Below, one piece after another: positions 20,170 through 42,702 of a DNA stretch of 64,000 nt. Position 1 is the stretch's first letter. Every line of letters begins with the position of its first letter. Origin of the DNA: Candidatus Latescibacterota bacterium (GTDB taxonomy: Bacteria; Latescibacterota; UBA2968; GCA-2709665). Location of the stretch: the NCBI GenBank assembly GCA_965248435.1, contig OZ252100.1:1-64000 (forward strand). The letters are read 5' to 3'. A program made the translations under genes and the position numbers. The notes beneath the pieces are model-generated. The model did no database searches. It saw only the letters and a list, made by a program, of their open reading frames with translations, and was not told the DNA's origin.

Positions 20170-20221
20170 ACTTGGCGGGGCTGAATTTTTTTCGCAGGCT
20201 GGTAAGTAACCGTTTACTTTC

Positions 20222-21616: not shown

Positions 21617-21657
21617 GGAATGATCCGGGCAATACCCAAAAACAACAAGAACCTCCC

Positions 21658-24600: not shown

Positions 24601-24930
24601 TTCGAGGCCATCGAACACGCCGGAAGCGTGCGTCTCCGTCCGATTCTGATGACGACGTCCACAACAGTCCTGGGGTTGCTGCCGATGGCCCTGGGGATAT
24701 TCAACTTCCGTCCGATCGTGAGCGGGTTCGATCACGCGCTTGGAGACGTTCTGCCTGCTGGAATGAAGGTCACGCTGATGAGTGCGATGGGCATCTTCTT
24801 TCCGGTAGGGCAGGGAGCGGAGATCCGGGCACCGATGGCGATTACGGTGATCGGAGGCCTTGTGTTTTCAACCCTGGTGACGCTCATTCTGATCCCTACG
24901 ATCTATTCACTGGTCGATCGCAAAGAGTAG
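21658..24930 (+). CDS. RND efflux permease (AcrB/AcrD/AcrF family)
   Basis: 1090 aa with GMLVDNSIVVLE, GIVVNNAIVLID and RLRPILMT. Confidence 0.93.
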   Translation: MKIVEFSTRRPVTVTMIVLAAVIFGWVAFRLLSINLLPDITYPTLTVRTEYEGTAPTEMERLITEPVEGAVGIVTNVIRVSSTSRPGISEVVVEFAWGTDMDFASLDVRERLDRVQLPLDAEKPVLLRFDPSLDPIMRIGLYGEESLVALRLLAEDQIKPELESIEGVAAVRVNGGLEEEIQVEIDAPKLASVGIPFSQLVNRLAQENVNLTGGQLKDGEAEYLVRTLNEFQSVEEIRDIVIGQRQDAALTLADVGKVIRGHKERLVITRINGRESVELAVYKEGDANTVTAAERVNDALNAFKEDAGELLSQSRMEVVFDQSTFIRGSVNEVLSTAIVGGLLAIVILYLFLNSPRSTSIISLSIPISVVATFFFMYVSDVSLNIMSLGGIALGIGMLVDNSIVVLESIQRSREEGMGVLESANKGAGNVGRAVVASTLTTICVFVPIVFVEGIAGQLFRDQALTVTYSLVASLFVALTLIPMLASLDVRGSEEQTELERRRVNSGHDLSEGAARGVGFALHTARGFGRVVLKMLSPLIWAFDQITSRAYRLYPNLLRWALRHRATVIVIAVGLMGGALLLGTLLGSELIPEISQGEFVINVEMPVGTPIERTEQAVIEIERMVRTQPEVLLIYDIIGSSGESGGAVEVERENVAQVHVALKEGVIREKEEAVMDRIRRALRDLPSVETKFARPSLFSARTPVEVEVSGYNLSTLSRLADEVADKMTGISGLTDVKTSSEGGSPEVQIRFDRKRVAQMGTTIQAIGEIVRNQVQGEVATEFSRGDRKVDIRVRADDDHRSRVDDLRRLKVTVPSSSTPIPLEVVADLSVTMGPAEVRRIDQQRVALVSANLEGRSLSDVVGEIGEEIRSLRYPSDFNIKIGGQDEERRRSFESMQLAIALAVFLVYLVMASQFESLVHPFVIMFSIPFGLVGVILILLVTGQTISVVVLIGLIMLAGIVVNNAIVLIDYINRLRRESGMSKFEAIEHAGSVRLRPILMTTSTTVLGLLPMALGIFNFRPIVSGFDHALGDVLPAGMKVTLMSAMGIFFPVGQGAEIRAPMAITVIGGLVFSTLVTLILIPTIYSLVDRKE

Positions 24931-25097
24931 GCTAATAGAAGGTGCAGGACTCATTTCTGCGAGCTTAGAAGGTTGTCTTTCATCCCCTTATTTCTTATAC
25001 TTTTAGGTCCCCTTTGTTGTTTGCTTCCTTCCTTCCCGCGCTCTCCCTGGACTGAAGAATTTCCGAGACCGGACGCCTCATCGTTCGTTCTCGAGCT

Positions 25098-25586
25098 TTG
25101 GTTTGGCTCATCCCGCTCGCGATGATCACATCTCGGAGGTGTGCGCTCATGTCTGGAAATGTCAAACCTGTCTTCTGTTGTTTGTTGTCTCTGGCCCTCG
25201 TGCTGGCCGGGATGATCGCACCTGTCGACGCGGAACCTTTCTTTACCGTTCGCCGATCCTTCGCTGTCGCTTTCCTGGGGGGCAGCCTCCTGTTAGCCAA
25301 GAAGGCCGTCGATTTTCGACGGGACGCGAACAACCTCTACGACCGGTATGAAGCGGCGCGTGGTGCGGAAGAGGCCGAGCGCCTCTTCGACAGGACCAGC
25401 GACCGGGATACAAAGAGCCAGTTGAGCATTGGCCTTTCGATCGTCCTGCTCGCGAGTGGGTTGCGGTTGCTTCTTTTGAGCGGCGAGGACGACAATATCC
25501 CGAAATTCGATCGGGGCGTGAGGCTGAATGTGTCGGGTGACAAAGCCGCTCGCAACGTAAAGGTTGTTGTTGAAAAGGGATTTTAG
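25098..25586 (+). CDS. Hypothetical exported or membrane protein
   Basis: Signal-like N-terminus (probable start 25149), two hydrophobic segments and a terminal Phe. It overlaps the next ORF. Confidence 0.6.
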   Translation: MVWLIPLAMITSRRCALMSGNVKPVFCCLLSLALVLAGMIAPVDAEPFFTVRRSFAVAFLGGSLLLAKKAVDFRRDANNLYDRYEAARGAEEAERLFDRTSDRDTKSQLSIGLSIVLLASGLRLLLLSGEDDNIPKFDRGVRLNVSGDKAARNVKVVVEKGF

Positions 25587-27576
25587 TCTCACCATGGGAA
25601 GAATTTCACGCATGAACTTCCTGGGTGATGTCCATTCGTTTATTCTCTGCCTGGGAATCCTCACAATCACGTTTTGTGGCTGTGGTCGTGAGCGATCGAA
25701 CCCGATCGATCCGAATTTCCCAGGCAGCGAGGGATTAGGCCCGCCCTCGAATTTGAGCGCCAGCGGCGGGATCGAACAGATTGTTCTCACCTGGGATCCT
25801 GTAGTCAGCGGTAATCTCTCAGGATATGGCGTTTACCGTGCCACTTCGTCAACCGGAGTGTATCTACCACTGCCGGGCGAGGTCGCGGATTCGCTCGTTA
25901 CGACGGGCCGGACAACGTTCGCCGATACATCGATCGACTTGAGCGTTGCCAAAATCTACTTTTACAGAGTGAATGCGGTGGATGTCCTAAAGCGATCGAG
26001 CGCGCTGTCTGTATTCGTGAGCGCTGAAGCTCTCGAAGATAATCGCCCACCTGCGGCCCCCACCGATCTCTCAGTCGTGAGCGATGCCGAGACGGGGAGT
26101 GTCACGCTGACCTGGGCGGCTCCCCAGTCGGATACAGACAACGAGGCCCTGAGTGGACTGAGCGGGTATCGGGTGCTCCGGTCCAGGGATAGTGACGGCG
26201 CGTTCGTGGAAGTCGCTACCGTTCTTGCCTCGGAGGTCACTTTCGTAGATACCACCGATTTGGAGCTCGATACCCGCTACTCCTATCGGGTCAGTGCGTT
26301 TGATGCGAACGGGAACGAAGGGGCGCAATCAGGCTCCGCGTCCATAACCACGACGGGCGCGGCTGCTCCAGCGGGGCTCAGGACGACAGACAGGATCGCT
26401 CGGATAGAGGTCGAGTGGAATCCTGTGAACGAACCTGACTTGCTGGGCTATCTGGTTCTGAGGTCCACATCGACTCAGGAAATATTCGAGCCCGTGACCC
26501 AGGACACGCTGTTCACGACCGCCCAAACCAGATATGCCGATAGCAACGTTTCGATAGGTACGGTCTATTTTTACAGGGTACAGTCGGTTGTCCAGGATCC
26601 GACACGGGGAATCTTGCGAAGCGACCCTTCCGGCTTTGTAGACGGCCTGGCACTCACAGATGAAAGCCCACCGGCCGCTCCCTCAGACCTGGCAGTAACC
26701 CTCGATGACGAGGACCCCAATCAAATCTTGTTGACCTGGACCGCTCCCCAGACGGATGGCGGTGGGGGCGAGTTGACGGGGCTCTCGCTCTACAGGGTCT
26801 TTCGGTCGCCGGGGGGCTCTACGTCGCTCGTCCTCCTGGCGGAGACTTCTAGCGTTCAATTGACTTATCAGGACACGACCGTAGCGCTCCTGACTCAGTA
26901 TTTTTACGCAATAAGCGCTGTCGATTCTGTGGGCAACGAGGGTGCCAGGTCCGGATCCGTCTTGATTACCACGCGGGGGCTGGCCGTGCCCGTGAATGTC
27001 AGCGCGACCTCTGACATTACCCAGGTCACGATTCAATGGACTGCCAACACCGAGCCAGAACTAACTGGCTACGAGATTCTGCGATATGCGGACCCGGCAC
27101 AGCCGGATCCAGATGAGACGTTCAGCACGCTCCTGACCACCTACGTGGATTCACCGCTGGCTGCGGGCAGTGCCTTCGTCTATCGCGTGCGTGCGGTTGG
27201 GACGGGAGGTCTTAAGAGCGAGCTTTCGCCATTCGTTTCCGCCCTCGTGCCGGAGGACAATCGGGCACCGGCTACGCCCGGAATTTTCGCTGGAAGCGTG
27301 CTCGGTTCGACCAGCATCAGGCTCAGCTGGAGTGCCCCTAAGACAGACGAGGGCGGCCAGGCCTTGACGGGACTCTCGGGATTCCGGATCTACAGGGCCC
27401 TGGGCCAGGGAGAAACAGGCTTCCCCTTCCTCGCTCAGGTGGATTCGAGTCAAGTGATGTATGATGATACCGGGTTGAGTTCGGCAACCACGTACAGCTA
27501 CCGAATCAGCGCCGTCGACGGCAACGGGAATGAAAGCGCTCAATCCAGCCAGATTATTCTTGTAACAGATAATTAG
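25564..27576 (+). CDS. Fibronectin type III repeat lipoprotein
   Basis: Lipobox FCG|C followed by RERSNPIDP. About six FN3 units (PAAP.DL...LTW...GYRV.R...Y.YRVSA.D..GNE). Confidence 0.85.
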   Translation: MLLKRDFSLTMGRISRMNFLGDVHSFILCLGILTITFCGCGRERSNPIDPNFPGSEGLGPPSNLSASGGIEQIVLTWDPVVSGNLSGYGVYRATSSTGVYLPLPGEVADSLVTTGRTTFADTSIDLSVAKIYFYRVNAVDVLKRSSALSVFVSAEALEDNRPPAAPTDLSVVSDAETGSVTLTWAAPQSDTDNEALSGLSGYRVLRSRDSDGAFVEVATVLASEVTFVDTTDLELDTRYSYRVSAFDANGNEGAQSGSASITTTGAAAPAGLRTTDRIARIEVEWNPVNEPDLLGYLVLRSTSTQEIFEPVTQDTLFTTAQTRYADSNVSIGTVYFYRVQSVVQDPTRGILRSDPSGFVDGLALTDESPPAAPSDLAVTLDDEDPNQILLTWTAPQTDGGGGELTGLSLYRVFRSPGGSTSLVLLAETSSVQLTYQDTTVALLTQYFYAISAVDSVGNEGARSGSVLITTRGLAVPVNVSATSDITQVTIQWTANTEPELTGYEILRYADPAQPDPDETFSTLLTTYVDSPLAAGSAFVYRVRAVGTGGLKSELSPFVSALVPEDNRAPATPGIFAGSVLGSTSIRLSWSAPKTDEGGQALTGLSGFRIYRALGQGETGFPFLAQVDSSQVMYDDTGLSSATTYSYRISAVDGNGNESAQSSQIILVTDN

Positions 27577-27868: not shown

Positions 27869-28933
27869 GTGCGATAGGATACTCAACGGACTTTATATCC
27901 TTTTCTGGGGGACGCATTATACAGGGAGGAGGCTGGCTATGGACCAAGTCCTGCTGGTGGATGGCGACGAGCGCTTCTCGAAGGAGTTGACGGGACGGCT
28001 TACGGCTAGGGGATACCGTGTGACCTGCGCCGGGTCCTCATCCGAGGGTGTGCAAAGGGTTCGAGAGGGGAGTCCGGAGCTCATTCTCACCGATGCACGC
28101 CTGCCTGATGGAGATGGGCTGCCCATTTTGGAGGCGGCTGGGAGATCGGACGGACAGACACCTGTCGTCGTGCTCAGCAAGCGGTTGTCTCCTGAGCTGG
28201 TGTTTTCGTCGATTTCGCGGGGGGCATACGATTGTCTTCCCAAGCCTTTGGACGACACGACACTGGATGATCTTCTAAGGCGCGTTCAAGTCAGGGATGA
28301 CAGCACCGTACGCTATCTCTTGGATCGGTCGATGGATCAACCTGAAGAGGAAGATGAGATGGTCGTTGGGCGCTCCGCGGGCATGATCGAGGCCCTGAAA
28401 AGTGCAGGTGGGGCTTCTGCCTCCAATGCGACCATTCTCATCATGGGGGAGAGTGGAACGGGGAAGGAGCTTCTGGCCAGGGCCATTCATAGGGCTTCGG
28501 GCCGGTCGGGAAGCCTCGTCGCAGTGAACTGCGCTGCAGTCGTTGAGACCTTGACCGAGGCCGAACTCTTCGGACACGAACGCGGAGCATTCACCGGAGC
28601 CACCGAGCGCCGGCTGGGCTGTTTCGAACGCGCCAGCGGCGGGACCCTTTTCCTGGATGAAATCGGGGATTCCTCCCAGGCTTTTCAAGCAAAGCTTTTG
28701 CGGGTACTCGATAGAAGTGAATTTTATCGAGTCGGGGGGCAGGACCCAGTCAAGTCCGATGTTCGTGTTATCTCAGCAACGAACTGTGACCTGGAGGATC
28801 TCATCAGAGCTGGGGCGTTCCGTGAAGATCTCTATTACCGCCTTTCGGAAGTCGTCATTCCGCTGCCGGCGCTTCGGGACCGAAGGTTGGATTTCCCACT
28901 TCTATTGAGTAAAATGCTTTCGAGGATCAATCT

Positions 28934-29975
28934 GCTGGATTCAATGACTAAGTGCAACACTTGGACTTGAAGACTTCAGCTGGTGTTTTGAAGTTAAGAC
29001 ATTTTCTTGGTCGGTTGTTGATCCGGTTCTGAATTTTCTTTAACTCGTGTTTGCTGACCTTTGAGAAGTCTGTCTTCTTGGGGAGGTATCTGCGGACCAG
29101 ACCGATAGCGTTTTCCACAGCGCCTCGCTCCCAGCTGTGGAACGGTTTGCAGAAATAGGATTTGGTGCCAAGCACCTCGTTGACCCGTTGATGTTGGCCG
29201 TTTTCGGATCCGTTGTCATATGTGATGCTCTTCCTCATGTGGGGAGGATGTCGCCCAAGGCGTCGATTAATCGCTTCGGCGACCTCCGAGGGTCCGTTCT
29301 TTGCCAGCTTAGCCAGGTGTAGGTATCTCGACGATCGCTCAAGACAAGCGCCAACGGCCTGTTTGCTCTCACGAGAGATGATGGTGTCGGATTCCCAGTG
29401 GCCAGGTTGTTTCCGTTTTTCGATGTAACGGGGACGTCGATCGATCGAAATACGGCCTGGAATGTGGCTTTCGTATGCCACCGCGGCTTTCGTTTTTTGT
29501 GAGCTCGGGATAAGCAAGCAACCAGATCCCGCTGCTTGTGCACCTTTGGATCGTAGATATACTGGTAGATGGCTTCGTGGCTGATACCCGCGCTCGGACG
29601 CTCCTCGGGAAGCCTCCCAGCGATCAACTCGGGAGACCATCCTTGCTTGAGTTTGGTCTCGACATATCGCCGGATAACCGGATTCTTCAGCCGTTTCCGC
29701 TTGCCGGCCTCCCGCTTACGTTTCTCAGCCCTTCTGTGAGCCTGGAGGCCCGAGTAACTCTCAGCTATCGGGGACGGATTACGTTTCAACTCTCTTGAAA
29801 TCGTGCTGGCGCTCCGGTCAAGGGCCTTGGCAATATCTCTAAGGCTTGCACCAGTGGCTCGACAAAGCGCAATCTGCTCGCGTTCGTCTATCGTAAGATG
29901 CTTGTAATTGTTTCCCATACACTTAGGATAGGACAGTTGCTACCCTAAGTGTTGCACTTCCTTATTGAACTCGGG
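28934..29975 (-). mobile_element. IS30-family insertion sequence, 1042 bp
   Basis: Imperfect 29-bp terminal inverted repeats (28934-28962 and 29947-29975, 22/29 matches, core AAGTGCAACACTT). A 3-bp target duplication TCT sits at 28931-33 and 29976-78. Confidence 0.92.
28948..29918 (-). pseudogene. IS30 transposase, frameshifted near 29470
   Basis: The N-half has YKHLT..ER, STISRELKRN, WSPE.IAGRL and SHEAIYQYIY. The C-half is in another frame and has GHWESD, SITYDNGSE, WERGAVEN and NNRPRKCL. Confidence 0.88.
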
Positions 29976-30378
29976 TCTTAGATTGAACCGGAAAATCGTG
30001 GGCGTTTCCCGAGATGCCATGGACCGATTGGTTGTACACGGGTGGCCAGGCAATATCCGGGAAATGCAGAACGTCATCACGAGGGCTGCGATACACTGCC
30101 GAGGTCAAATTATCGAGACGTTCGACCTGCGCGGTTTGGACAGCAATCAGCATGCGAAGCGCGATGATCGTGTACGGACCTTGATGGAATTGGAGCGTGA
30201 TCATATTGGGCAAGTGTTAGACATTGCCGGATGGAACCGCGGCGAGGCCTGTCGGATGCTCGGCATTACCCGGCCGACATTGCGCCGAAAGATCCGTCGT
30301 TATGAACTCGGGAAGACGGGCTGAGATCGTAGAATCTTTGAGATTCAACGGGTGGAATTGTTGCCCGGCCCTTCCGTA

Positions 30379-30447: not shown

Positions 30448-31626
30448 GTGTGTGTGGAATTCCTGACAGATCTGTTTTGCACCCGTTGTGAAAAATCATA
30501 CCCGAAGGACAAGCTCTGGAACCTGAGTCCTTGCTGTAGCGCTCCTCTGTTTGCACGTTATGATCTGGGCGGTGTTTCGAAAGCATTGAGCCGCGAGCAG
30601 ATCGCTTCCCGGTCGCCGACCATGTGGCGGTACGCCGAGATCCTACCGGTGGAGCGTGGAGATTTCAGGGTGAGCCTGGGAGAGGGGTTTACACCGCTCC
30701 TGCACGTGGGTTCGCTCGGGAAGGCGCTTGGGCTGGAAGGCCTCTACCTGAAGGAGGAGGGCAACAATCCGACGGGTTCATTCAAGGCGCGAGGAATGTC
30801 GGCGGCCGTTTCAAGGGCTATCGAACTTGGGGCGAGATCGTTCGTGGTTCCATCTGCCGGAAATGCGGGTAGTGCATTGGCCGCATATGCGGCCCGTGCG
30901 GGCGTCTCCGCCCACATTTTCATGCCGAATGACACTCCGCTGGCCAACCGAAGTGAGTGCGCTGCTCTGGGTGCACACGTGGAACTCGTTGATGGGCTCA
31001 TCACAGATTGTGGCAGGATTGTGGCAGAAAGGAAGGAACAAGAGGATTGGTTCGATCTCTCCACGCTAAAGGAGCCATACCGCGTGGAAGGAAAGAAGAC
31101 CATGGGCTACGAGCTGGCTGAGCAGTTCGACTGGGTTCTCCCAGACGTTGTGATTTACCCGACCGGCGGAGGTACGGGACTGATCGGGATGTGGAAGGCA
31201 TTTGGGGAAATGGAAGAGATGGGCTGGATCGACAAGAAACGGCCCAGGATGATCTCGGTTCAGGCGGCGGGGTGTGCCCCGATCGTTCGGGCCTTTGAGG
31301 AAGGCATCGAAAAGGCCGAACCCTGGAAGGATGCGCATACGATGGCTGCGGGACTTAGAGTGCCGGCTGCGGTGGCAGATTTTATCATGCTGAGGGTGAT
31401 TCGCGAGAGCGGAGGGGTTGCTGTCTCAGTCACAGACGATGAGATTTTCCAATCTTTGGGCGAGATGGCCTCCTTGACGGGGATTTTCCCTTGTCCGGAG
31501 GGCGCCGCCTCGTTGGCCGGGCTTAAACACCTGATCGCAAACGGGTCGGTTCGCCGGGATGAGCGGGTCGTCTTATTCAACACAGGTACGGGTCTCAAGT
31601 ACCTTGATGTTCTTGAGGATCGTTGA
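30448..31626 (+). CDS. thrC: Threonine synthase (PLP fold type II)
   Basis: SLGEGFTPL, NPTGSFKARG, PSAGNAG, EGKKTMGYE, PTGGGTG. Confidence 0.9.
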   Translation: MCVEFLTDLFCTRCEKSYPKDKLWNLSPCCSAPLFARYDLGGVSKALSREQIASRSPTMWRYAEILPVERGDFRVSLGEGFTPLLHVGSLGKALGLEGLYLKEEGNNPTGSFKARGMSAAVSRAIELGARSFVVPSAGNAGSALAAYAARAGVSAHIFMPNDTPLANRSECAALGAHVELVDGLITDCGRIVAERKEQEDWFDLSTLKEPYRVEGKKTMGYELAEQFDWVLPDVVIYPTGGGTGLIGMWKAFGEMEEMGWIDKKRPRMISVQAAGCAPIVRAFEEGIEKAEPWKDAHTMAAGLRVPAAVADFIMLRVIRESGGVAVSVTDDEIFQSLGEMASLTGIFPCPEGAASLAGLKHLIANGSVRRDERVVLFNTGTGLKYLDVLEDR

Positions 31627-33338
31627 ATCCATTGGCGGCCATGACTCAAGAGGAGACAACGCGCGCCCTTGCCTTTGCATTCGCGAAGTTCACAGCACAG
31701 GCAAGAGGTCGTCTGGTCCAGATGCTGCCGGTCTCGCTAAGAGAAGAGGTCGCGAACACGATGGACGCTGCCTCGGACCTTCAGCCATCAGAGATGTCTT
31801 TTTTAGAGCAGGTATTAAACGGCGACCTCGAGGTCATCTTTGCTCAAGAAGCGGACGGGCACGAAGCATCCGGATTGTTTGTCGAAGCGTGGCCGCTCAA
31901 AGTTTCAGATGTTCTGGCTATGATTCTACTTCACGCAACTCCCCAGCAGGCTGGGGACCTCCTGCTCTACCTCCCCCCGGGCCTCCAGGGAGAGGTCCTT
32001 CAGAAAGTAACGGCCCAGAATTGGACCGCGCTTGACACCCGGATGGGCCGAGTAGAACTGTCCTTCCTGGACACCATCGAGTCGGCTTGGGACCTTCCTC
32101 CCCGAAAAAGCTCAACAGAGTTCTCTGCCGATATCCTCCGCCACGTATCCTCCGCCGCCGCGGTAAGACGGATTCTTAGCGATATGTATCGGCTTGATCC
32201 AGAACCCACGAGAGCTGTACAGGACCTTTTATACCGCTTTGAAGACTTGGTTCGACTGGGAGACCAGGATTTCCAGACGGTGCTCTCGAGGGTAGACGCT
32301 TGGGACCTTGCGATTGCGCTCGGCTCGGCGACGGCCAGTCTGAGGCGGCGCGTGCTCGCGAACGTTTCCGAACGTCGGGCACTAAACCTTTCTGAGGATG
32401 AGGAAGCCATCGGTGAGGTCGAGCCCGATGACGCTGAGGCAGTGCAGCGTCGCATTGTCCAAAAAGCCCGGAGTCTCTACGAAGAAGGAAAAATCAGGAC
32501 TTACTTCGGGTCGGTCGGTATCGCGGAGGAAGAGGATGAGCCCTCTCCTGATGAAGGTAAGCCTGCCGGCGGGTCAGGCAAAAAAGGGGAAGCCTTGACC
32601 GAGCCCAAGCAGAAGCGACGGAATCTGAAAGGAATGGCCCTCGGTCTTTCCGGTGCAGTCGTGTGTGTCGCACTCGTTGCCTGGTATGTTCAATGGCGCT
32701 CAGGCGTCTCGAAGCCCAATGGCAGTTCACGGCGAGCAACACTTTTCCGCGGGTCGGACAGCGAGACCCCCGCGAGGAGCGTAAACAAAAAGAAAAAGAC
32801 GGGACAGAGCATCCTGACCGACGATGGGTCGAGCATGGAGACCGTAGTCGGTGACGTGCTGCTTTTTTCAGGCGATTCAGATCCTCCGGATGTTGAGAAA
32901 CTCAAGACAGGGGATCAGGTGGTGACGGAGGCGGGTCGGAGGGCCGTGCTCAGGCTTGGGGAAGAGGTGGGACAGATCCAGGTCGAGGGGGCATCGTCTC
33001 TAGAGATCGGGGAGAAAGAAGAGAACGGAACCGTTCCTCCCCAGTTGAGTATTCGATTGGGAAAACTCTGGGTCTACGTAAAAAATCCAACCATGGAGGT
33101 GCGTTCACCCCTCGCCGTGGTCACCGCTTCGGAGGGGGCGCTATACAAACTGCGCGTCGTGCTCGATGCGTCCACCACGATTTCCGTGAGTCGAGGTACC
33201 GTCTGGGTCAAGCCGCTTGTCGGTGAGGACAGTGGAAATCTGGTCCTTGGACCACAAGATGTCGTGAGAATTCACCCGCGGGGTCGCATCACCCGGTACA
33301 ACCAGGAACCGGAATCGGGTTGGTTGGGTTTGTTTTAG
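31623..33338 (+). CDS. FliG-like cytoplasmic domains + single TM + FecR-like periplasmic domain
   Basis: LYRFEDLVRLGDQDFQTVLSRVD..DLAIAL...NVSERRALNLSED...QRRIV...EEGKI resembles FliG-C. A TM lies at about 32631-32696. LKTGDQVVTEAGRRAVL...GKLWV...EVRSPLAVV...SVSRGTVWV resembles FecR. Confidence 0.8.
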   Translation: MNPLAAMTQEETTRALAFAFAKFTAQARGRLVQMLPVSLREEVANTMDAASDLQPSEMSFLEQVLNGDLEVIFAQEADGHEASGLFVEAWPLKVSDVLAMILLHATPQQAGDLLLYLPPGLQGEVLQKVTAQNWTALDTRMGRVELSFLDTIESAWDLPPRKSSTEFSADILRHVSSAAAVRRILSDMYRLDPEPTRAVQDLLYRFEDLVRLGDQDFQTVLSRVDAWDLAIALGSATASLRRRVLANVSERRALNLSEDEEAIGEVEPDDAEAVQRRIVQKARSLYEEGKIRTYFGSVGIAEEEDEPSPDEGKPAGGSGKKGEALTEPKQKRRNLKGMALGLSGAVVCVALVAWYVQWRSGVSKPNGSSRRATLFRGSDSETPARSVNKKKKTGQSILTDDGSSMETVVGDVLLFSGDSDPPDVEKLKTGDQVVTEAGRRAVLRLGEEVGQIQVEGASSLEIGEKEENGTVPPQLSIRLGKLWVYVKNPTMEVRSPLAVVTASEGALYKLRVVLDASTTISVSRGTVWVKPLVGEDSGNLVLGPQDVVRIHPRGRITRYNQEPESGWLGLF

Positions 33339-33414
33339 GGTAATCCTGGATGATCTTCAAAATGGCTGCAGGATGAAGATGGATCTGCCGATGGTTTCGG
33401 TGGAGGACCATTGA

Positions 33415-33825
33415 ATGAAGATTTGGCTCAAGATTGCGATTCTGACGTTTCCGGCTCTGGCTGCGGGCGACCTATGGGCCGCCGGGGAGTCGATCTATGG
33501 CCTCGAATCCGTGAAATTCACCAGGGTGTTCGACCCTGATCCGAGGCCCGAGAGACTGCTGCTCGTTTCAGGCAGCCTGAAATTTGCAGGAGGTTTCCCT
33601 GGGGGAAATACCTGGGAAGCTGTCACCTATATTCCTCAGCGGACGGCGGCCCCGAGGGCCGACTACGGGATCCTCAAAGTAACCGGGAACTTCGTCCGCT
33701 TCTACTCTTTTGTTTCATTCGCGACCTATCGGGGTAGAGTGGGTGAGGAAGGTGAGAAGATTTCCGTCACAAAGATCGACGGAGCCGGCAGGTCTCAAAC
33801 CGAGACGTGGTATCTGGTCAGATAG
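33415..33825 (+). CDS. Hypothetical secreted protein
   Basis: GGAGG RBS, a Sec-type signal peptide and a beta-rich mature region. Confidence 0.7.
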   Translation: MKIWLKIAILTFPALAAGDLWAAGESIYGLESVKFTRVFDPDPRPERLLLVSGSLKFAGGFPGGNTWEAVTYIPQRTAAPRADYGILKVTGNFVRFYSFVSFATYRGRVGEEGEKISVTKIDGAGRSQTETWYLVR

Positions 33826-33914
33826 GGCGACCCGTATTGTTTTCCGGGGCGTCGAGTGGAATTTTGTTATATTTACGCTGCAATACGGGTCAGGTTTTGG
33901 GGGCATCGGATCAG

Positions 33915-34304
33915 ATGATTGAGAAGGAAATCGGAAAGTATAAAACCTATGTCCTTGAGGCTGAGGACATGGTCGTCGTTATGGGTGAAGTGGCGAAACA
34001 TGCCGGCTTCTTGAAGGAGGCCGGTTTTGAGGAGCACCCGGAGACCAAGGAGTGGGTTGGGAAGGGCGCCCACCTTTACGGAATGGATCCCCAGACATTC
34101 TTCGATAGGTTCAGTTCTCGAACCGGGGGCGACTCAGAACTGACGGCTCAGGCGACGGACGGCCAGTCGTTCTACCAGGTGGATTCACTCCCACTGGTAG
34201 AGGAGGACGAGCAGGGCAGATCTTTTATTGTGAGCATTCACGCCCTGGATTTGGAGACGAGGACGGTGATCGATGAGGGCGTCTCGAACTTCAGGGTCGG
34301 GTAG
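33915..34304 (+). CDS. Hypothetical acidic cytoplasmic protein
   Basis: Protein-like ORF from the ATG at 33915, followed by a terminator. Confidence 0.65.
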   Translation: MIEKEIGKYKTYVLEAEDMVVVMGEVAKHAGFLKEAGFEEHPETKEWVGKGAHLYGMDPQTFFDRFSSRTGGDSELTAQATDGQSFYQVDSLPLVEEDEQGRSFIVSIHALDLETRTVIDEGVSNFRVG

Positions 34305-34328
34305 CACTGTTTCGGTGATATTTTATTC

Positions 34329-34404: not shown

Positions 34405-35724
34405 TCATGGGTCTCGAAGAAATTCGAGTGCTGCGTCCGAAGCCGCGCGGCCGCTCAGAACAGCGCTCTCTATCGTCGAGGGAAGGCCCGTGTCGGTCCA
34501 GTCTCCGGCAAGGAAGAGTCCGGGCCATTCGGTAGTGACGCCAGGGCGAGGGGCGCTCGGGGGAAGGACGTAAGTCGCCTGGCGTTCCCGAACGACGAGA
34601 CTATGAATCAGGGTATTCCTCTCATTATCAGGGAGGTGAGAACGGATCTCTTCCAGGGTGATACGGACCAGATCCGCGTCCGATTCGTCCAAAAGCCCGT
34701 CAGCCGCACTCGACACTACCGCAACGTGACCCGTCGACGCTCGATCCCGCCCTCGATAGAGGCTCCGCTTGTTGAACACCCAATGCATTCGGCCACCAAG
34801 GAGTCCAACGTAATCGGATTCGATAACGGGATGCTCAAACCAGAGGTTGACGGATAGGATGGGTGAGGGGCGAAAGGAGGCCAGGTCTCGGCGAAGTCTG
34901 GAAAGAGAAGGGGGAAGGAGTCGGATAAGCGCCGTCGGGGGCACAGAGCTGATACAGGCGTCGGCACTCAATCTTTCGCCAGAGTCTAATTGGATGGAAA
35001 TTCTCTCTCTCTCCTCACCGAAGTGAACCACCCGGCGGCGCAGTAGGACCTCTCCTCCGCGCGATTTAATGAACTGACTCGCGGAATCGGAATACAGTCC
35101 GCTCAGGCCGACGGTAGCGTATCCCAGGCACGCGCCGTCCAGGTTCCGCAGAAAAGCGTCTCGGAAGATCCGAGCAAGGTGGCTGGCGGGTGCATCCTCG
35201 GGGGCCTGGTTCAAGGCTGAGATCGAAAGTGGGTGCCAGAAGCTTCTGAGGAGACGATCAGTTTGACCGCACCGTTCCAGCCAGGCTTTGACGGAAAGAC
35301 CCTTCGTTTTGAGAGGCGACAGGTTCCTTGCGACACCTGCAAACTTCGGCATATCGGAGAGTGCGATGGGTTTGAAACGCATCAGGCCGAGCAGAATGTG
35401 AAGGGGAGAAGGGAGGCGGGGAAAGGAGAGGTGTGTTCTACCCAGTCGCGGGTGGCGAAACTCAATCGCGAATTTGTTCTGAAAGTGGAGCCGGTCCGAT
35501 GTTCCGATCTGTTTTAAAAATTCCAGCGTGTGCAGATTGCACTTCATCAACAAGTGCTGGCCGTTGTCAACCGTGTCCCCGGTCTGTCTGTCCGTGAAAG
35601 AATACGCCCTTCCACCCAACTGCTTCCGCCGTTCCAGCAGCGTCACTCTGAGACCTTTGCTTGCGAGTTGAGCGGCGGCGGAGAGCCCAGAAAATCCCCC
35701 CCCGATGACGACGACGTGTTTCAT
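34405..35724 (-). CDS. hpnE: Hydroxysqualene dehydroxylase HpnE
   Basis: VIGGGFSGLSAA, LGGRAYSF, VDNGQHLL and LAGDWTDTGLPSTIESAV. It follows hpnCD. Confidence 0.9.
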   Translation of the reverse strand: MKHVVVIGGGFSGLSAAAQLASKGLRVTLLERRKQLGGRAYSFTDRQTGDTVDNGQHLLMKCNLHTLEFLKQIGTSDRLHFQNKFAIEFRHPRLGRTHLSFPRLPSPLHILLGLMRFKPIALSDMPKFAGVARNLSPLKTKGLSVKAWLERCGQTDRLLRSFWHPLSISALNQAPEDAPASHLARIFRDAFLRNLDGACLGYATVGLSGLYSDSASQFIKSRGGEVLLRRRVVHFGEERERISIQLDSGERLSADACISSVPPTALIRLLPPSLSRLRRDLASFRPSPILSVNLWFEHPVIESDYVGLLGGRMHWVFNKRSLYRGRDRASTGHVAVVSSAADGLLDESDADLVRITLEEIRSHLPDNERNTLIHSLVVRERQATYVLPPSAPRPGVTTEWPGLFLAGDWTDTGLPSTIESAVLSGRAASDAALEFLRDP

Positions 35725-36575
35725 GCCAGAGACCGCCTGGCTCCAGCGCGAATCCATGTGCTGAGTGCAATGCTGAATTTCCTCAGGTTGTTCACACCTA
35801 TCGAATTCTCGAACACGTTGTATTGGACCGATTCTATCCGCTTGAGTAGGGCTGTGTATATATGCGCCATGATCTCAGCCGAAAAGAGGTCTGGCCGATC
35901 TTCTTCTGTGAGGAATTTCCTCGCTCTCGCGTAAAAATCCTTCGCCCGCTTCGTTTGAAATCGCATCAGTTTCACGAATGCGGGGTTATACGTGTGAGAC
36001 AGCAGGTCCCGTTCGGAATAGCCGAACCGCTGAAGATCCTCGGAGGGTATGTAGATGCGATCCTGCTGGGCGTCAGCTTTCAGGTCTCTCATGATGTTCG
36101 TGAGTTGCAACGCGACGCCGAGGTTGACTGCATAATCCCGGGTCTTCAAATTCCGATATCCAAATATTTCAATGCAAATCAGTCCGATTGTGGATGCAAC
36201 CCGATAACAGTATTGGTAAAGGTCATCAAACGTGGCATACCGGCGTTTGTGAAGGTCCATTTCGACGCCGTCGATAAGGTTCAGGAAATGGGATTTGGGG
36301 ATGGGGAATTGAAGGAGCGTCTTTTGAAGGTCGATGGTAATCGGGTGTTCGGCGCGCCCCTCATAGCAGGCTTCCAGCTGGCTTCGCCAGGTCTGCAGAT
36401 TTTCTCGCGCAGCTTCTGGTGATGACGCCTCGTCCACCAGATCATCCGTGAATCGGCTAAAGGCATAGGCGGCGAAGATGGCATCCCGCTTGGGCTTGGG
36501 TAGGAAAACGAAGGCGTAATAAAAATTCGTGCGCGCCTTCTTGACGAAGGCACTCGTGGAATCACTGATCTTCAT
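35721..36575 (-). CDS. hpnD: Presqualene diphosphate synthase HpnD
   Basis: TNFYYAF, YAFSRFTDDLVD, YCYRVAS, ALQLTNIMRD. Confidence 0.88.
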   Translation of the reverse strand: MKISDSTSAFVKKARTNFYYAFVFLPKPKRDAIFAAYAFSRFTDDLVDEASSPEAARENLQTWRSQLEACYEGRAEHPITIDLQKTLLQFPIPKSHFLNLIDGVEMDLHKRRYATFDDLYQYCYRVASTIGLICIEIFGYRNLKTRDYAVNLGVALQLTNIMRDLKADAQQDRIYIPSEDLQRFGYSERDLLSHTYNPAFVKLMRFQTKRAKDFYARARKFLTEEDRPDLFSAEIMAHIYTALLKRIESVQYNVFENSIGVNNLRKFSIALSTWIRAGARRSLA

Positions 36576-37530
36576 GAGGGTCGGATAATGTTGATGTTTC
36601 TTCACTTATGTCTTTCGGAAAGAACGCGCGAAGCAGAAGACGGGCGCGGTCCCAGGCCGAGATGCGTGGGCGTCTCCGGAAGACATCGTATCCGTTCTGA
36701 CGGATCTTGTCCAGAATCCGAAGTCCGCCCAGGCAAGTCAACCGGAGTTCGAATCTCAGACGGCCGGCTACGGATTCAGAAAGGGATCGTCCATCGTTGA
36801 AGAGCGCCTCGGTGCGTGCGATCTCGAATTCCAAGAGGTCATCGAAGCCGGGCGTCACGCGTCCTTGCGCCAGGTTTTCTTCTGTAACCTCGAACCGATT
36901 CATATCCTCCTGCGGAATATAGACCCTGCCGCGCGAGAAATCTACCGCGACGTCCTGCCAAAAATTGGTCAGCTGCAGTGCGCTGCAGATTGCATCTGAG
37001 AGAAGAAGCCTCCTTTCGTCTCTATGGCCAAAGAGGTGCAGGATGAGTCTGCCGATCGGGTTGGCCGAGTAGCGGCAGTATGAGAGCAGATCATCGAAGG
37101 TTTGTCGGCGCTGCGTCGTCACATCCAACCTGAAGGCCCACAGGAGGTCTCTGAGAAGCTGGGTCGGAATGTGATGCGTCCGTATTGTTTCGGCAAGTGC
37201 AGTAAATACAGGACCTTCAGGAGCTGTTAGGCAGGCGTTGAGACGCTCTTCCCACCTGTCCAGTCTGATGAGACGCTCCGTATCGTTCATTCCGGGTTCG
37301 TCCGCAAAATCGTCTGCTGCACGAGCGAAGGCGTAGATACTACAAACGTGGGGTCTGAGAGACCTGGGGATCAAGCGGGAACCCACCGGAAAATTCTCGT
37401 AGTGACTCCTCGTTACAGACTCACAGTAGGAAAACGCCTTCCCAAGCGACACGGTAGATTCTTGATTCGTTAGGCCCTCAATTTGAGCAGACGTTATTTG
37501 GGAGGTCATGGCGAGAGGAAGATAAGACAT
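36562..37530 (-). CDS. hpnC: Hydroxysqualene synthase HpnC
   Basis: SHYENFPVGS, YAFARAADDFADE, YCRYSANPIGR, ALQLTNFWQD. Confidence 0.9.
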   Translation of the reverse strand: MSYLPLAMTSQITSAQIEGLTNQESTVSLGKAFSYCESVTRSHYENFPVGSRLIPRSLRPHVCSIYAFARAADDFADEPGMNDTERLIRLDRWEERLNACLTAPEGPVFTALAETIRTHHIPTQLLRDLLWAFRLDVTTQRRQTFDDLLSYCRYSANPIGRLILHLFGHRDERRLLLSDAICSALQLTNFWQDVAVDFSRGRVYIPQEDMNRFEVTEENLAQGRVTPGFDDLLEFEIARTEALFNDGRSLSESVAGRLRFELRLTCLGGLRILDKIRQNGYDVFRRRPRISAWDRARLLLRAFFPKDISEETSTLSDPHEDQ

Positions 37531-37980: not shown

Positions 37981-40227
37981 ATGATGCTTCGGTTTATGTC
38001 CAACCATAGAGGCTCACCCTGCGCGATGGAATGGGTGCTCTCCGTCCTCTTCCTTATTTTGACTCCCCGTTTCGTCGACGCCGCCACTCTGAAGGGGATC
38101 ATAAAGGATACTCAGACTAACGAACCCCTCTATGGGGCATGGGTCGTTCTGGGAGACGCCATCGGAGGTGTTGAGACAGATGCCGCGGGTCGGTTTGAAT
38201 TCGATTCTGTGCCTGCAGGCATCTACACGCTGCGCGTTTCACACGTAGGATACCACCAACTCGTGGAGAAAGGGGTGAGGGTATTGGATCGGGCAGAGGG
38301 CGTGTTGCAACTGGCAATGATACCCAGGCTGATTCCGCTGGAGGAGATGATCGTGCGGGCAGAACCGGTCGGACAATCCGATATTCATCGGATGCCTTCA
38401 TTTGTGACCGTCTTGAAGCGCGAGATGTTCGAGGGCCGAGCGACGTCCGTGCCCGAAGTTTTATCGACAGCGACAGGAGTTCAACTGAAACAATTGGGCG
38501 GGCTCGGAAGTTTCAGCACGATCTCGGTTCGTGGTTCCTCCGCCGAGCAGGTGGAGATCTATCTGGACGGCATCCTTCTTAATTCGGCCTTTGGGGGAGG
38601 CGTCAATCTGAGCAATCTCCCTCTCAAGCAGATCGAGCAAATAGAGCTGTATCGAGGCGCTGCGGCAGAGGGGGGGGGTATGGGAGGGACCCTCCACATT
38701 CGGACGCGTTCAGCGAGGGAGGGGTGGCAGCGGAACGGAGGCGTTTCCTGGGGCTCATTCGATACACGAAATCTCAGTACAACGATCTCCGATCGAAGGG
38801 GAGCGGGCGATTACCTGCTCGTGGCGGAATATCTCACAAGCGATAACAACTTTCGATTTCTTGATGACAATGGCACGCGCTACAATCTGGACGACGACTC
38901 CGTTGCCCGCCGAGTGAACAGCGACTTTACATCCGGAAGTTTGCTGGGAAAGTGGAGACATCGGTTTCATCGGAATTGGAAGTTCTATCTTCAGGAAAAT
39001 CTCTACTGGAGCCACAAAGGGATTCCTGGAATCAGCAACAACCAATCGACACACGCCCGCCTGAATACGTTCAGAAATCTCGTTGAAGCCGGCGTCGTGA
39101 TTCCGGATCTGAGAAATCGGTTTTCCATTCGGCAGCGAGTCACCTTCTCTCATACGGCAGAGTCTTTTATGGACCCGAATGGGGAGGTGGGTCTGGGGCG
39201 TCAGAACAGCCGATATCGGACGAGGCATATCGAATGGCAGAGCAGGATTCAGACTGCGATTGGCCAAAATCTTGGCACAGGTTTGGGCATCTCCATTCGG
39301 AAAGAGACCTTCCTTCCCGAATCCCGCCTGCAGCGTCGGTCGCTCTTCCTCGAAAGCGATCGGTGGACAGCCGATGTGCGGGTGGGGACGGATTGGGAGC
39401 TCCCCGGGCGCAAGGGGATCGCTTCGATCTCTGCGGAGGTCCGGCGCCTTCGAAGCCGGGTGTTCGATGAGAACCCCTATCTGTTTTCGCCCGAGGCGTC
39501 AGACACGACGACAGACCGAACGCTTGTATCTTTCCGGTGGGGGTTGCGATTCGACCTGAGGCCCGGGCTCTGGCTGAAGGCCAATCTGGGGTTGAGTCCC
39601 CGGGTTCCCAGCTTCTACGAACTCTTCGGTGATCGCGGAGGTGTCGTGGGGAATACCGAATTGATCCCCGAAAGGGGGCATACCTGGGATGCCGGTTTTC
39701 GGGCCCAATCTCGTCGCGATGCGGTGTTTGAAGCTGCTTTCTTCGACCATCGCTACGAGGATCTGATTCAGTTCGTTCAGACATCACAGGGGACATCCCG
39801 TGCCTTCAACATCGGCAAAGCTCGTGCGCGAGGCGTGGAAGTCACGGCTGGCGTATCCCCTGTGAGGAGGTGGTCGATATCCGGAAACTACACCTATCAA
39901 CGTGCCGTGGACGAATCAGACATTCCCCACCGCCAGGGAAATCGCCTGCCAAACCGACCTGCCCACAGGACATTTCTACGCACGGACGTTGGGGTGGGAT
40001 ACGTTTCAATCTTCTATGAATATACTTTCCAGGACAAGAATTTCCTGGACCGGGCCAACTTGCGTCCCGTGCCGTCCCGCCATATCCACAACCTCGGATT
40101 ACGCGTTCGCCTTTCGAGCCGGGCCCGAATGACGCTAGAAGCCAAAAATCTGAAGAATACACGGATCGCCGACGTCTGGGGATATCCGTTGCCTGGAAGA
40201 TCTTACTTCGTCACGCTGCAGTTATAA
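37981..40227 (+). CDS. btuB: TonB-dependent receptor, probable cobalamin transporter
   Basis: N-terminal carboxypeptidase-regulatory-like domain, plug motif ISVRGSSAEQVEIYLDG and C-terminal GYPLPGRSYF. Preceded by a B12 riboswitch. Confidence 0.85.
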   Translation: MMLRFMSNHRGSPCAMEWVLSVLFLILTPRFVDAATLKGIIKDTQTNEPLYGAWVVLGDAIGGVETDAAGRFEFDSVPAGIYTLRVSHVGYHQLVEKGVRVLDRAEGVLQLAMIPRLIPLEEMIVRAEPVGQSDIHRMPSFVTVLKREMFEGRATSVPEVLSTATGVQLKQLGGLGSFSTISVRGSSAEQVEIYLDGILLNSAFGGGVNLSNLPLKQIEQIELYRGAAAEGGGMGGTLHIRTRSAREGWQRNGGVSWGSFDTRNLSTTISDRRGAGDYLLVAEYLTSDNNFRFLDDNGTRYNLDDDSVARRVNSDFTSGSLLGKWRHRFHRNWKFYLQENLYWSHKGIPGISNNQSTHARLNTFRNLVEAGVVIPDLRNRFSIRQRVTFSHTAESFMDPNGEVGLGRQNSRYRTRHIEWQSRIQTAIGQNLGTGLGISIRKETFLPESRLQRRSLFLESDRWTADVRVGTDWELPGRKGIASISAEVRRLRSRVFDENPYLFSPEASDTTTDRTLVSFRWGLRFDLRPGLWLKANLGLSPRVPSFYELFGDRGGVVGNTELIPERGHTWDAGFRAQSRRDAVFEAAFFDHRYEDLIQFVQTSQGTSRAFNIGKARARGVEVTAGVSPVRRWSISGNYTYQRAVDESDIPHRQGNRLPNRPAHRTFLRTDVGVGYVSIFYEYTFQDKNFLDRANLRPVPSRHIHNLGLRVRLSSRARMTLEAKNLKNTRIADVWGYPLPGRSYFVTLQL

Positions 40228-40236
40228 CCTCGGGGA

Positions 40237-41517
40237 GTGAAGATGAGATTTCGTTCAGGAATGCTTTGCCTTATCTGTGTCCTCAGTGCCTGTTCGTTGG
40301 CGTGGGCGCAGGACCGAGCGATTTTGACGACGACGGATTTCGAGAGTGGGAGTGTCTCCGTTGTGGACTTGCAAACGGACCTGGCGGCCGTGAACCTGCT
40401 GAACATCCACAGCGATGCTGCAGTGCGGACTTACGGGGGATTGGTCTACGTCATCAATCGGTTCGGCGAAGACAATATCCTTGTACTTGATCCCGACGAT
40501 CTCGCGACACCCGTTCTTCAATTTTCGGTGGGAAACGGGACGAATCCACAGGATATCGCATTCCTGAGCCAGACCAGGGCCTACATCGCCAGGCGGGCGT
40601 CCGACCGCCTCCTGATCGTGAACCCTGCGACCGGTGATTCGCTCGGGGGCATCGATCTGTCTTTCGTGGCTGATGCAGATGGATTGCCAGAAATGAAATT
40701 CGTCACGATATTTGGGAGAAGTCTCTACGTGACGTGTCAAAGACTGGATCGAGACAATTTCTCCTCGCCCACCGACCGCAGCGAGGTCGTGGTCGTTGAT
40801 ATGGATACAGATACGGTTATGGATCTGGACCCGGAGCAGGATGGCATTCAGGGAATCGTGCTTCAGGCAAAGAATCCGTTCGGCGGACAGGTTCGTATAG
40901 GGAGGAAGCTTTATCTGTCTTGCGTCGGATCGTTCAGTGATCTGACCGACGGTGGTATAGAGGTGTTGAACCTGGAGGAGAACTTAACAGAAGGAGTCGT
41001 GCTTGGTGAGGATCTGCTCGGGGGAAATGCAGGCTCCATCGCGTTCACTTCCGAGGAGCTTGGATATGTCGTGGTTTCGGATGCCTCATTTGCGAACAGC
41101 GTCAAGGGATTCGACCTGGCCTCAGGGGGAACCGTTTCTGGGACGCTTCCGGGCGGTTCGGGGGGGTTTGTACCTGAAATCGCAGCGTGGAAAGGGCAAC
41201 TCTACGTCGCGGATCAAGGCAGCTTCGGGAGTCCAGGGACGGCAGGACTCCTGATCTACGATGTGTCATCCGAAAGTCTGGTGACTGGGCCGATTTCCAC
41301 CGGGCTTCCTCCGAATTCGATCGCCTTTCTGGAGACACCTTCTACTGCGGATTTCGACGGCAGCGGCGGAGTAGATTTTATGGACTTCCTTTCCTTTGTT
41401 CTGGCTTTCGATTCGACGCAAGGTGACGCCGATTGGGATTCGAGGTTCGACCTGGACGGCGACCTTGAAGTCCGTTTCGGCGACTTTTTGGTATTCGCAA
41501 GATTCTTTGGTCAATAG
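40237..41517 (+). CDS. YncE/BtuG-like beta-propeller with a C-terminal dockerin-like double EF-hand domain
   Basis: YVINRFG.DNI, NPQDIAF and GPISTGLPP. The tail reads DFDGSGGVDFMDF...DLDGDLEVRFGDF. Confidence 0.75.
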   Translation: MKMRFRSGMLCLICVLSACSLAWAQDRAILTTTDFESGSVSVVDLQTDLAAVNLLNIHSDAAVRTYGGLVYVINRFGEDNILVLDPDDLATPVLQFSVGNGTNPQDIAFLSQTRAYIARRASDRLLIVNPATGDSLGGIDLSFVADADGLPEMKFVTIFGRSLYVTCQRLDRDNFSSPTDRSEVVVVDMDTDTVMDLDPEQDGIQGIVLQAKNPFGGQVRIGRKLYLSCVGSFSDLTDGGIEVLNLEENLTEGVVLGEDLLGGNAGSIAFTSEELGYVVVSDASFANSVKGFDLASGGTVSGTLPGGSGGFVPEIAAWKGQLYVADQGSFGSPGTAGLLIYDVSSESLVTGPISTGLPPNSIAFLETPSTADFDGSGGVDFMDFLSFVLAFDSTQGDADWDSRFDLDGDLEVRFGDFLVFARFFGQ

Positions 41518-41532
41518 AAGGTTTCTGCGGAG

Positions 41533-42159: not shown

Positions 42160-42693
42160 ATGGCACACATTGTCCTCGTGACGGGTGGGGGCCGAAGCGG
42201 AAAGAGCAGCTACGCGCAAAAGTTGGCCGAGGCGCTCCCCGGCCAGCGGGCCTTTGTGGCTACCGGCGTCTCCGTGGATTGCGAGATGAAGGACAGGATT
42301 CTGTCACACCAGAGGGCGAGGCAGGATAAGGACTGGGAGACAATAGAGGAGCCGGTAGCGCTCTCTCGGATCCTCGAAGAGTCGAGACACGAAGTCCTGC
42401 TGGTAGACTGCCTGACCCTGTGGATCAACAATCTGATGCACGAAGCAGAGCTAGAAGGGCGACAGATCGAAGAGGCTGATGTGGAGACGTGTTGCGACAA
42501 TCTCCTGAAAGCGGCTTTGGATCGATCCGGGGCTATTATTCTTGTGACCAACGAAGTGGGCATGGGCATCGTACCCGATCATCCATCCGGCAGGAGATAT
42601 CGTGATCTGTTGGGGAGGTGCAACCAGAGGATCGCCCGCCAGGCAGATCGAGTTGTGCTGATGGTCTCCGGGATACCTCTAGATCTGAAATAG
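42160..42693 (+). CDS. cobU: Adenosylcobinamide kinase/phosphate guanylyltransferase
   Basis: [38 protein letters not shown]. Confidence 0.93.
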
Positions 42694-42702
42694 GGACTGA
42701 GT

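Follow-up and report, generated by a model that had tools for sequence, protein, structure and literature searches.

A FliG-like module joined across the membrane to a FecR-fold domain in marine Latescibacterota points to an undescribed flagellum-linked role

The window analysed here is a stretch of 64,000 nucleotides of Candidatus Latescibacterota DNA (positions 1 to 64,000 of contig OZ252100.1) from the genome labelled G000, and it encodes at 31641..33338 a protein in which a FliG-like module is linked through a membrane anchor to a FecR-fold domain in the periplasm. We term this gene FliG-FecR; it and all features of its product described below lie on the forward strand. The intact frame extends over 31623..33338 and would yield 571 aa if a TTG start at 31623 were used, but since the homologues all start at the ATG at 31641 (residue 7), the latter is the likely start of the gene, with the family profile matching at G000:C1:31641-33296. 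All residue numbers used here count from the TTG. Directly upstream, and of interest as context only, is a thrC-like gene for a pyridoxal phosphate-dependent enzyme (30448..31626, forward strand; Pfam PALP, 5.2e-76), whose stop overlaps or abuts the start of FliG-FecR, the ATG being situated 15 nucleotides past that stop.

An earlier note, made by reading this DNA by eye, had proposed a FliG-like module followed by one transmembrane (TM) helix and a FecR-like beta domain, and Pfam, PDB searches, hhalign, an AlphaFold2 (AF2) model and Foldseek together bear out this architecture. The best-preserved part of the cytoplasmic region is a FliG_C domain (residues 190-291; 32190..32495), which is recovered by Pfam with an E-value of 8.4e-25 (87.6 bits against a cut-off of 23.3), by the genome scan and by fold matching. 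Upstream of it is a FliG_M-like armadillo (ARM) unit (residues 94-131; 31902..32015) that Pfam FliG_M detects over residues 97-129 (1.6e-8, 35 bits) and that is devoid of the EHPQR motif. A sequence search of the PDB recovered the MC domains of Thermotoga maritima FliG as the best hit (6e-18 over residues 97-292), and hhalign comparison of the profile of 35 family members with 18 canonical FliGs gave a probability of 99.9 and an E-value of 6e-33, pairing residues 97-294 with FliG 132-328, so that the alignment begins just past the canonical EHPQ. The AF2 model was computed from the alignment of 35 sequences and reaches a mean predicted local distance difference test (pLDDT) score of 83.4; in Foldseek searches of the PDB it retrieved FliG structures first (4fhr_B, E 3.4e-9), with the FliG_C fold matching 1qc7 and 8ucs_H at target TM-scores of 0.85-0.94. 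ARM_M, helix MC, the MFxF-like motif (LYRFEDL) and ARM_C are all kept. Nevertheless, the protein scores only 94.9 bits against the TIGR00207 fliG equivalog model, below its cut-off of 226.7, in line with the earlier description of it as a non-canonical FliG. Its N-terminus forms a four-helix domain in the AF2 model (residues 9-77; 31647..31853; helices 9-21, 25-34, 37-51 and 60-77, pLDDT >90) that is ARM-like by eye; residues 1-96 have neither a Pfam FliG_N match at E<=1 nor an hhalign alignment to canonical FliG, although given their helical character in the model a remote kinship to FliG_N may exist. Hence, of the two FliG-N/M-like units discerned in the earlier note, the second is confirmed by Pfam FliG_M and the first is recognizable by eye only.

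C-terminal to the FliG_C domain is an acidic, disordered cytoplasmic tether of about 37 residues (298-334; 32514..32624; pLDDT <50 at 303-332), which ends in KQKRRNLK and leads into a single TM helix (residues 335-359; 32625..32699) indicated by both the AF2 model and Kyte-Doolittle hydropathy. This is the sole hydrophobic helix of the protein, its best 19-residue window (338-356) scoring 2.12, and the position of KQKRRNLK on its N-terminal side indicates an N-in topology with the FliG-like part in the cytoplasm. The helix is followed by a poorly conserved, disordered periplasmic spacer (residues 360-404; 32700..32834; pLDDT <50 at 360-402) and then by an all-beta domain of the FecR/CJM fold (residues 405-565; 32835..33317; the modeled beta domain spans 405-560), which has about 160 residues, consists only of strands by DSSP and has no STN subdomain. 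In fold searches the periplasmic part matches the periplasmic domain of PupR (6ovk_R; E 4.6e-6, 138 columns, root mean square deviation 2.9) and the anti-sigma protein BDI_1681 (4m0h and 4m0n, about 2e-5), with the ESM Atlas adding weak leads only (0.76 and 0.75) to FecR-bearing clusters. Pfam FecR (PF04773) is not called in the protein of the window at E<=1, but it is called in 11 of 35 family members, with a best value of 2.5e-6.

A word-indexed protein search recovered six relatives of FliG-FecR, whereas an exhaustive search of representative sequences recovered 35 (E<=1e-30), many of which are 500-600 aa in length and match over their full extent at identities as low as 23%. The named genome records among the matches are metagenome-assembled genomes of Latescibacterota, with one labelled Gemmatimonadetes. 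A family-profile scan of 168 genomes of the phylum found the TM- and FecR-bearing form in 37, G000 included, where a genome counts as a carrier if its match reaches beyond profile position 300 or is interrupted by the end of a contig or a break in the frame. All 37 belong to four families of one class (f1, 4; f2, 10; f3, 3; f4, 20). Short forms that keep just FliG_C, the TM helix and the FecR domain occur in G096, G097, G098, G041 and G043, and versions of 363-378 aa are also present in the representative library, implying that FliG_C is the minimal cytoplasmic module of the family. The join between the FliG-like part, the TM helix and the FecR domain is also observed outside the source assembly, since this stretch is tiled, with overlaps of 30 bases, by contigs (30749-32531, 32502-32664 and 32635-34321) that come from an independent study of seawater (X7) and are about 97% identical; together with the recurrence of the architecture across the carriers this answers the concern of the earlier note that the join might be chimeric. 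FliG-FecR is hence a genuine conserved gene of marine Latescibacterota. One contig of another dataset (X1) joins 30639 to 34284 and skips 3644 bases, but its shorter side is of 22 letters, too weak to interpret; it may reflect a related strain or a chance join.

Residue conservation was counted over the same 35 family representatives. Mean column conservation is highest in FliG_C (0.55-0.59), stands at 0.44 in the periplasmic domain, which has 10 columns of at least 0.9, and is lowest in the two disordered linkers (0.29 in the tether and 0.14 in the periplasmic spacer). Nine residues are invariant, namely Q218, S249, R251, R252, R283, G480, P496, G505 and R511. The most conserved cytoplasmic motif is the torque-helix region, N-V-S-E-R-R-A-L-N-L-S-E-D-E-E (residues 247-262; 32361..32408), which in all 35 sequences takes the form N-x-S-x-R-R-(5 residues)-acidic-acidic, one of them with D-N as the pair. 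The acidic pair lies 7-8 residues past R251 (E258 and D259 in the window protein), and the arginine and acidic pair align with the conserved arginine and acidic pair of T. maritima FliG. We take the arginine and the acidic pair to correspond to R281 and D288-D289 in Escherichia coli numbering, and the arginine of GPVR to R297. In E. coli FliG, R281 and D288-D289 contact E98 and R90 of MotA, as stated in PMC12505986. The FliM-binding EHPQR motif is found in none of the 35 sequences. The alignments thus uphold the residue-level observations of the earlier note, namely that SERR...SEDEE is kept, that GPVR has become GEVE and that EHPQ is absent. A FliG_C domain fused to a sigma factor of the extracytoplasmic function (ECF) type in the same genome (see below) has no acidic pair, indicating that the FliG_C fold does not itself demand one. 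Between the metagenome locus L100 (L100:9989-11632) and the locus L038 (L038:8315-9922) the FliG-FecR proteins are 37% identical against 89% for the adjacent sigma factors, with the genes upstream in the same block at 52-76% identity to their counterparts in f4 loci. Judging from these identities, FliG-FecR is diverging far faster than its neighbours.

The phyletic distribution of FliG-FecR closely follows that of flagellar genes. The host genome itself encodes one FlhA, eight proteins with flagellin-N matches, FliM, three canonical-length FliGs and a weakly MotA-like protein, whose gene lies at about C1:2,227,966-2,228,877, answering in the affirmative the question raised in the earlier note as to whether the host has canonical flagellar genes. 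Across the 168 genomes, FliG-containing profile matches occur in 69 and matches to a separate FliM-like query in 63, with a nearly equal breakdown by family. All carriers but one (36 of 37) have a match to FliM; the remaining genome, G127, has a completeness of 58% and does encode a canonical FliG. Conversely, none of the 79 FliG-less genomes of f1-f4 carries FliG-FecR. The same relationship is seen within genera: in g1, G000 is a carrier and G040, a 97% complete genome in one contig, has neither FliG-FecR nor FliG; in g25 the five genomes with FliG, among 31, are exactly the five carriers; and in g11 neither gene is present in any of 21 genomes. In the flagella-less genomes G040, G044, G060 and G071 the thrC-like gene and the hpn genes that flank FliG-FecR are kept, while FliG-FecR and the gene downstream of it (c10, see below) are gone, and tblastn with the FliG-FecR protein found nothing better than E 2.9. 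As related genomes are not independent samples, these co-occurrences are given as counts without a statistic. They reasonably establish a flagellar context for FliG-FecR, and the phyletic pattern speaks against a flagellum-independent system.

Comparison of 21 FliG-FecR loci revealed two fully collinear types of neighbourhood. Type A, found in f1-f3 and the metagenome locus L102, comprises a sigma-54 activator, the thrC-like gene, FliG-FecR, c10, c12 and the divergent hpnE/D/C genes. Type B, found in all 11 f4 loci and the metagenome loci L100 and L101, comprises dxr, PTPS, a DUF protein, fadB-like, HpaB, sometimes an SDR, and then FliG-FecR, right after which L101 ends. A distant metagenome subfamily is situated in the same type B block and so adds no independent context. 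Synteny was considered as a guide to function and set aside, because collinear blocks tell little beyond c10 and a sigma factor gene in f4. The c10 gene (33415..33825, forward strand) encodes a 136-aa secreted protein whose N-terminus resembles a signal peptide and which matches no Pfam family. It is found in 12 of 168 genomes, always adjoining FliG-FecR in f1 and f2, and is directly downstream of it in all 12; this adjacency, along with its loss jointly with FliG-FecR, makes it a candidate periplasmic partner. An AF2 model of c10 has a mean pLDDT of 56, and complex prediction of the periplasmic domain (400-571) with mature c10 scored 0.00 in two runs made without controls, which weighs neither for nor against the pairing.

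How these features relate to known systems can be considered from both halves of the protein. FliG-FecR is homologous to FliG (PF14841, PF01706, TIGR00207) over FliG residues of about 132-328, sharing ARM_M, helix MC, the MFxF-like motif, ARM_C and the torque-helix arginine with its acidic pair, but it has no EHPQR, no recognizable FliG_N and no R297 equivalent, and fails the fliG equivalog cut-off. Moreover, whereas FliG is a soluble protein of about 330-340 aa on the MS ring, FliG-FecR has 565-571 aa, one TM helix and a periplasmic domain, and unlike FliG it is not encoded beside fliF or fliH. One public source annotates a family member plainly as flagellar motor switch protein FliG; it should rather be filed as a FliG paralogue. 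With the FecR/PupR/FpvR sigma regulators it shares a single-pass N-in topology and a periplasmic CJM beta fold. However, in FecR-type regulators the N-terminus carries an anti-sigma domain, and no anti-sigma family of Pfam or NCBIfam is detected in FliG-FecR; the STN of PupR has no counterpart in it either, just 138 of the 213 residues of 6ovk_R being aligned. Similarly, while the genes of FecR-type regulators accompany those of a FecI-type ECF sigma factor and a TonB-dependent transducer, the neighbours of FliG-FecR are the thrC-like, c10, c12 and hpn genes. A third point of comparison is with the YcgR/MotI-type brakes and the EpsE clutch, which are soluble PilZ or glycosyltransferase proteins acting on the FliG-MotA interface. 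These have no homology to FliG-FecR, and any likeness would lie in the proposed accessory logic only; in FliG-FecR the effector would be a membrane-tethered copy of FliG_C coupled to the periplasm. In our literature searches we came across no account of either a FliG-FecR fusion or ECF sigma factors with FliG or FliM extensions.

Taken together, these observations point to FliG-FecR being a lineage-specific inner-membrane protein of one class of Latescibacterota with an undescribed flagellum-linked accessory or signalling role. As a specific form of this role we tentatively favour, at somewhat less than an even chance, a FliG_C module that is tethered to the membrane and, controlled from the periplasm, engages the MotA stators. 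The invariance of the torque-helix charges in the family makes a MotA-type partner the most plausible candidate. The acidic tether would keep FliG_C close beneath the membrane, roughly level with the point at which the FliG_C of the rotor meets MotA's cytoplasmic face, and the tethered domain could then bind stator units through the conserved arginine and acidic-pair charges. FliG-FecR would in effect be a pseudo-rotor, acting as a stator decoy, a brake, or a parking or scaffold site rather than being built into the C ring. Where or when stator binding occurs might be set by the periplasmic domain, which would sense, or anchor to, an envelope component, a control that in f1 and f2 is probably shared with the adjacent secreted c10. 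A further possible step would be FecR-style proteolytic release of the FliG module.

Several observations weigh against stator engagement. The R297 equivalent is not conserved among the 35 family sequences, and the torque-helix charges, from which we infer MotA binding, could serve another partner. FliG-FecR is missing from 16 of the 36 FliG-positive f4 genomes and from all 16 FliG-positive genomes of other classes, and is hence dispensable for flagella. The co-distribution could also stem from a copy of FliG that arose by duplication in flagellated lineages and was later lost jointly with the flagellar genes. None of the 21 loci has a mot, fli or flg gene adjoining FliG-FecR, consistent with its placement outside any flagellar operon in the earlier note. 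In 11 of 11 f4 loci and in L100, FliG-FecR is instead followed, as the next conserved gene, by one for a 281-aa group-2 (RpoS/RpoD-like) sigma factor.

This sigma gene is one of the reasons to consider FliG-FecR as an analogue of the FecR-style transducers or anti-sigma factors, in which the FliG-like module would replace the anti-sigma domain and hold a transcription factor at the membrane until a periplasmic signal releases it, with regulated proteolysis perhaps being part of the release. The candidate ligands are the f4 group-2 sigma factor, or the ECF sigma factors with FliM or FliG_C extensions, which could bind through FliG:FliM or ARM-stacking interfaces. The domain order, in which one TM helix separates a binding domain in the cytoplasm from a FecR/CJM domain in the periplasm, is indeed that of the sigma regulators, as described in PMC7186176, and the best structural match, 4fhr, is a FliG:FliM complex. 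In addition, the genome itself encodes ECF sigma factors with C-terminal flagellar pieces, clustered at G000:C1:943-960 kb. The fusion partners are a piece of FlhA (Pfam FHIPEP, 5.4e-9; profile positions 322-408), FliM twice (2e-15 and 2.5e-7, the FliM part being the middle domain) and FliG_C (4.8e-10). The four genes are at C1:943471-944376 (L093:5472-6377), C1:946970-948121 (L093:8971-10122), C1:956158-957315 (L012:5159-6316) and C1:959278-960123 (L012:8278-9123, minus strand), and a truncated ECF-FliG_C copy with its N-terminus cut occurs beside transposase-like open reading frames at C1:5324457-5325200. Full-length ECF-FliG_C and ECF-FliM fusions are present in about 6 and about 6-7 of the 168 genomes, respectively, and every one of these genomes also carries FliG-FecR. 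In the main text of PMC7826278, a reclassification of ECF sigma factors, FliG and FliM have no occurrences, though its supplementary tables of fused domains might bear on the matter.

Despite these suggestive links we regard the transducer-like function, the main rival of stator engagement, as unlikely. FliG-FecR has no anti-sigma domain and no STN subdomain; in PupR, the STN and CJM subdomains are needed together to bind the transducer, according to PMC7186176. This also makes unlikely a classical FecR-type relay of signals from a TonB-dependent transducer, the more so as the nearby TonB-dependent receptor (37981-40227) has no STN or other signalling domain by Pfam. The FliM-binding EHPQR is absent in 35 of 35 sequences, and with full-length fusions in so few of the 37 carriers the ECF sigma factors cannot explain the family as a whole, for which reason ECF-FliG_C and ECF-FliM were rejected as obligatory partners. 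The type B block being collinear throughout, the adjacency of the f4 sigma gene counts as about one observation, and no sigma gene is adjacent in f1-f3. Finally, the G-T pair that we take to be the self-cleavage site of FecR-type regulators reads G-A in the window protein, though it is G-T in some family members. A broader version of the same idea would have FliG, FliM and FlhA domains serve, in this class of Latescibacterota, as portable docking modules for gene regulation, with the ECF fusions sequestered on the basal body or on FliG-FecR as an anti-sigma factor of a new type; we consider this improbable.

Comparably improbable, in our estimation, is a structural role in the rotor, whereby the FliG module would assemble into the C ring together with canonical FliG, through ARM_M/ARM_C stacking, and tie this ring to the membrane or a ring in the periplasm, as a FliF-FliG fusion would. 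The retention of ARM_M, helix MC, LYRFEDL and ARM_C and the occurrence of FliG-FecR solely alongside flagellar genes are consistent with such a subunit, and engineered FliF-FliG fusions do form rings (PDB 8z4d; abstract of PMC6079021). Yet the loss of EHPQR and FliG_N leaves the usual contacts to FliM and FliF missing, the short forms dispense with ARM_M, the protein evolves fast (as gauged by the comparison of L100 and L038) and many flagellated relatives do without it.

The proposal of the earlier note, that FliG-FecR is a repurposed FliG in a signalling or mechanical system of its own that spans the envelope, has nothing to do with flagella and may partner an ExbB/TolQ-type motor, fares considerably worse and appears very improbable. 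In its favour are the position of the gene outside a flagellar operon and a TonB_C-like/ExbB/ExbD cluster (18060-20169) about 12 kb upstream. However, FliG-FecR is confined to flagellated genomes, its carriers having FliG and, in 36 of 37 cases, FliM, and it is lost together with flagella; the ExbB cluster adjoins it in none of the loci compared, nothing links it to the ExbB at 19109, and the genome has three ExbB/TolQ-type genes, as is usual. A scan of the window for five families (FliG_C, FliM-like, FHIPEP, Flagellin_N and MotA_ExbB) found only FliG-FecR itself and the ExbB at 19310, so the earlier statement that the 64 kb contain no other fli, flg or mot gene holds for the families scanned. 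An assembly chimera or decaying pseudogene has a negligible probability, as no point in its favour was found and the frame is intact, the architecture is alike in 37 genomes and many metagenome proteins, and independent contigs tile the join.

FliG is known as a soluble rotor protein, and a conserved paralogue connected across the membrane to a sensor-type periplasmic domain would represent a new means of coupling the envelope to the interface of stator and rotor, or of turning that interface to signalling. For motor biology it offers a natural FliG_C on a tether with which the recognition of the rotor track by stators can be studied. Considered along with the ECF fusions to FliG_C, FliM and FlhA, it hints that flagellar parts have a regulatory use, as yet unexplored, in an uncultured marine phylum. 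Were the docking-module proposal true, sigma activity would report flagellar assembly or the state of the envelope by a mechanism unrelated to FlgM export, with an anti-sigma binding interface borrowed from the motor switch and a periplasmic trigger. At a practical level, the plain annotation of such proteins as FliG would mislead the prediction of motility from metagenomes.

The genome has a number of other FliG and sigma factor paralogues. Three canonical-length FliG genes with EHPQ (C1:2545898-2546914, 2547389-2548405 and 4870988-4872004) are present, none beside fliF; the first two are tandem copies 95% identical in DNA, and each is preceded by a gene for a CheY-like single-domain receiver. 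Many genomes of the class have multiple paralogues of FliG and FliM, with as many as 8 or more matches, and the host has only one full FlhA. At C1:2513189-2513917 (minus strand; L014:8190-8918) a 243-aa protein combines an N-terminal FliG_C (8.6e-24) with intact acidic pair and about 130 further residues of no known family. The possibility that this C-terminal half is a MotA cytoplasmic loop was rejected, BLASTP against the MotA-like protein of the genome giving a best E of 1.3. A short FliG_C-only frame with an internal TAG stop at C1:2296317-2296676 is probably a decayed paralogue. The group-2 (RpoS/RpoD-like) sigma factors of about 290 aa have around twelve paralogues in G000 (e.g. C1:4400990-4401808 and 1306194-1306997), and one orthologue of these is the conserved downstream neighbour of FliG-FecR in f4.

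In the window, the sigma-54-dependent response regulator upstream of the thrC-like gene is split (27939-30324) into a part with receiver and AAA domains (27939-28970) and a part with the AAA lid and Fis helix-turn-helix (29965-30324); in relatives it is in one piece of 442-484 aa. Between the halves is an IS30-like transposase (28948-29918, minus strand) that is itself spread over two overlapping frames; at L012:677-1660 the same transposase is present as an intact copy of 327 aa. Further upstream, the region 18060-27576 also includes an HlyD/AcrB efflux pair and a 670-aa fibronectin-III repeat protein, for which no link to FliG-FecR was seen. Downstream, at 34405-37530, are the divergent hpnE/hpnD/hpnC-like genes of squalene synthesis (an amine oxidase and two SQS_PSY genes), followed at 37981-44513 by the TonB-dependent receptor and then by the cobalamin salvage genes CobA/BtuR, CobU, CobT-like DBI_PRT and CobS.

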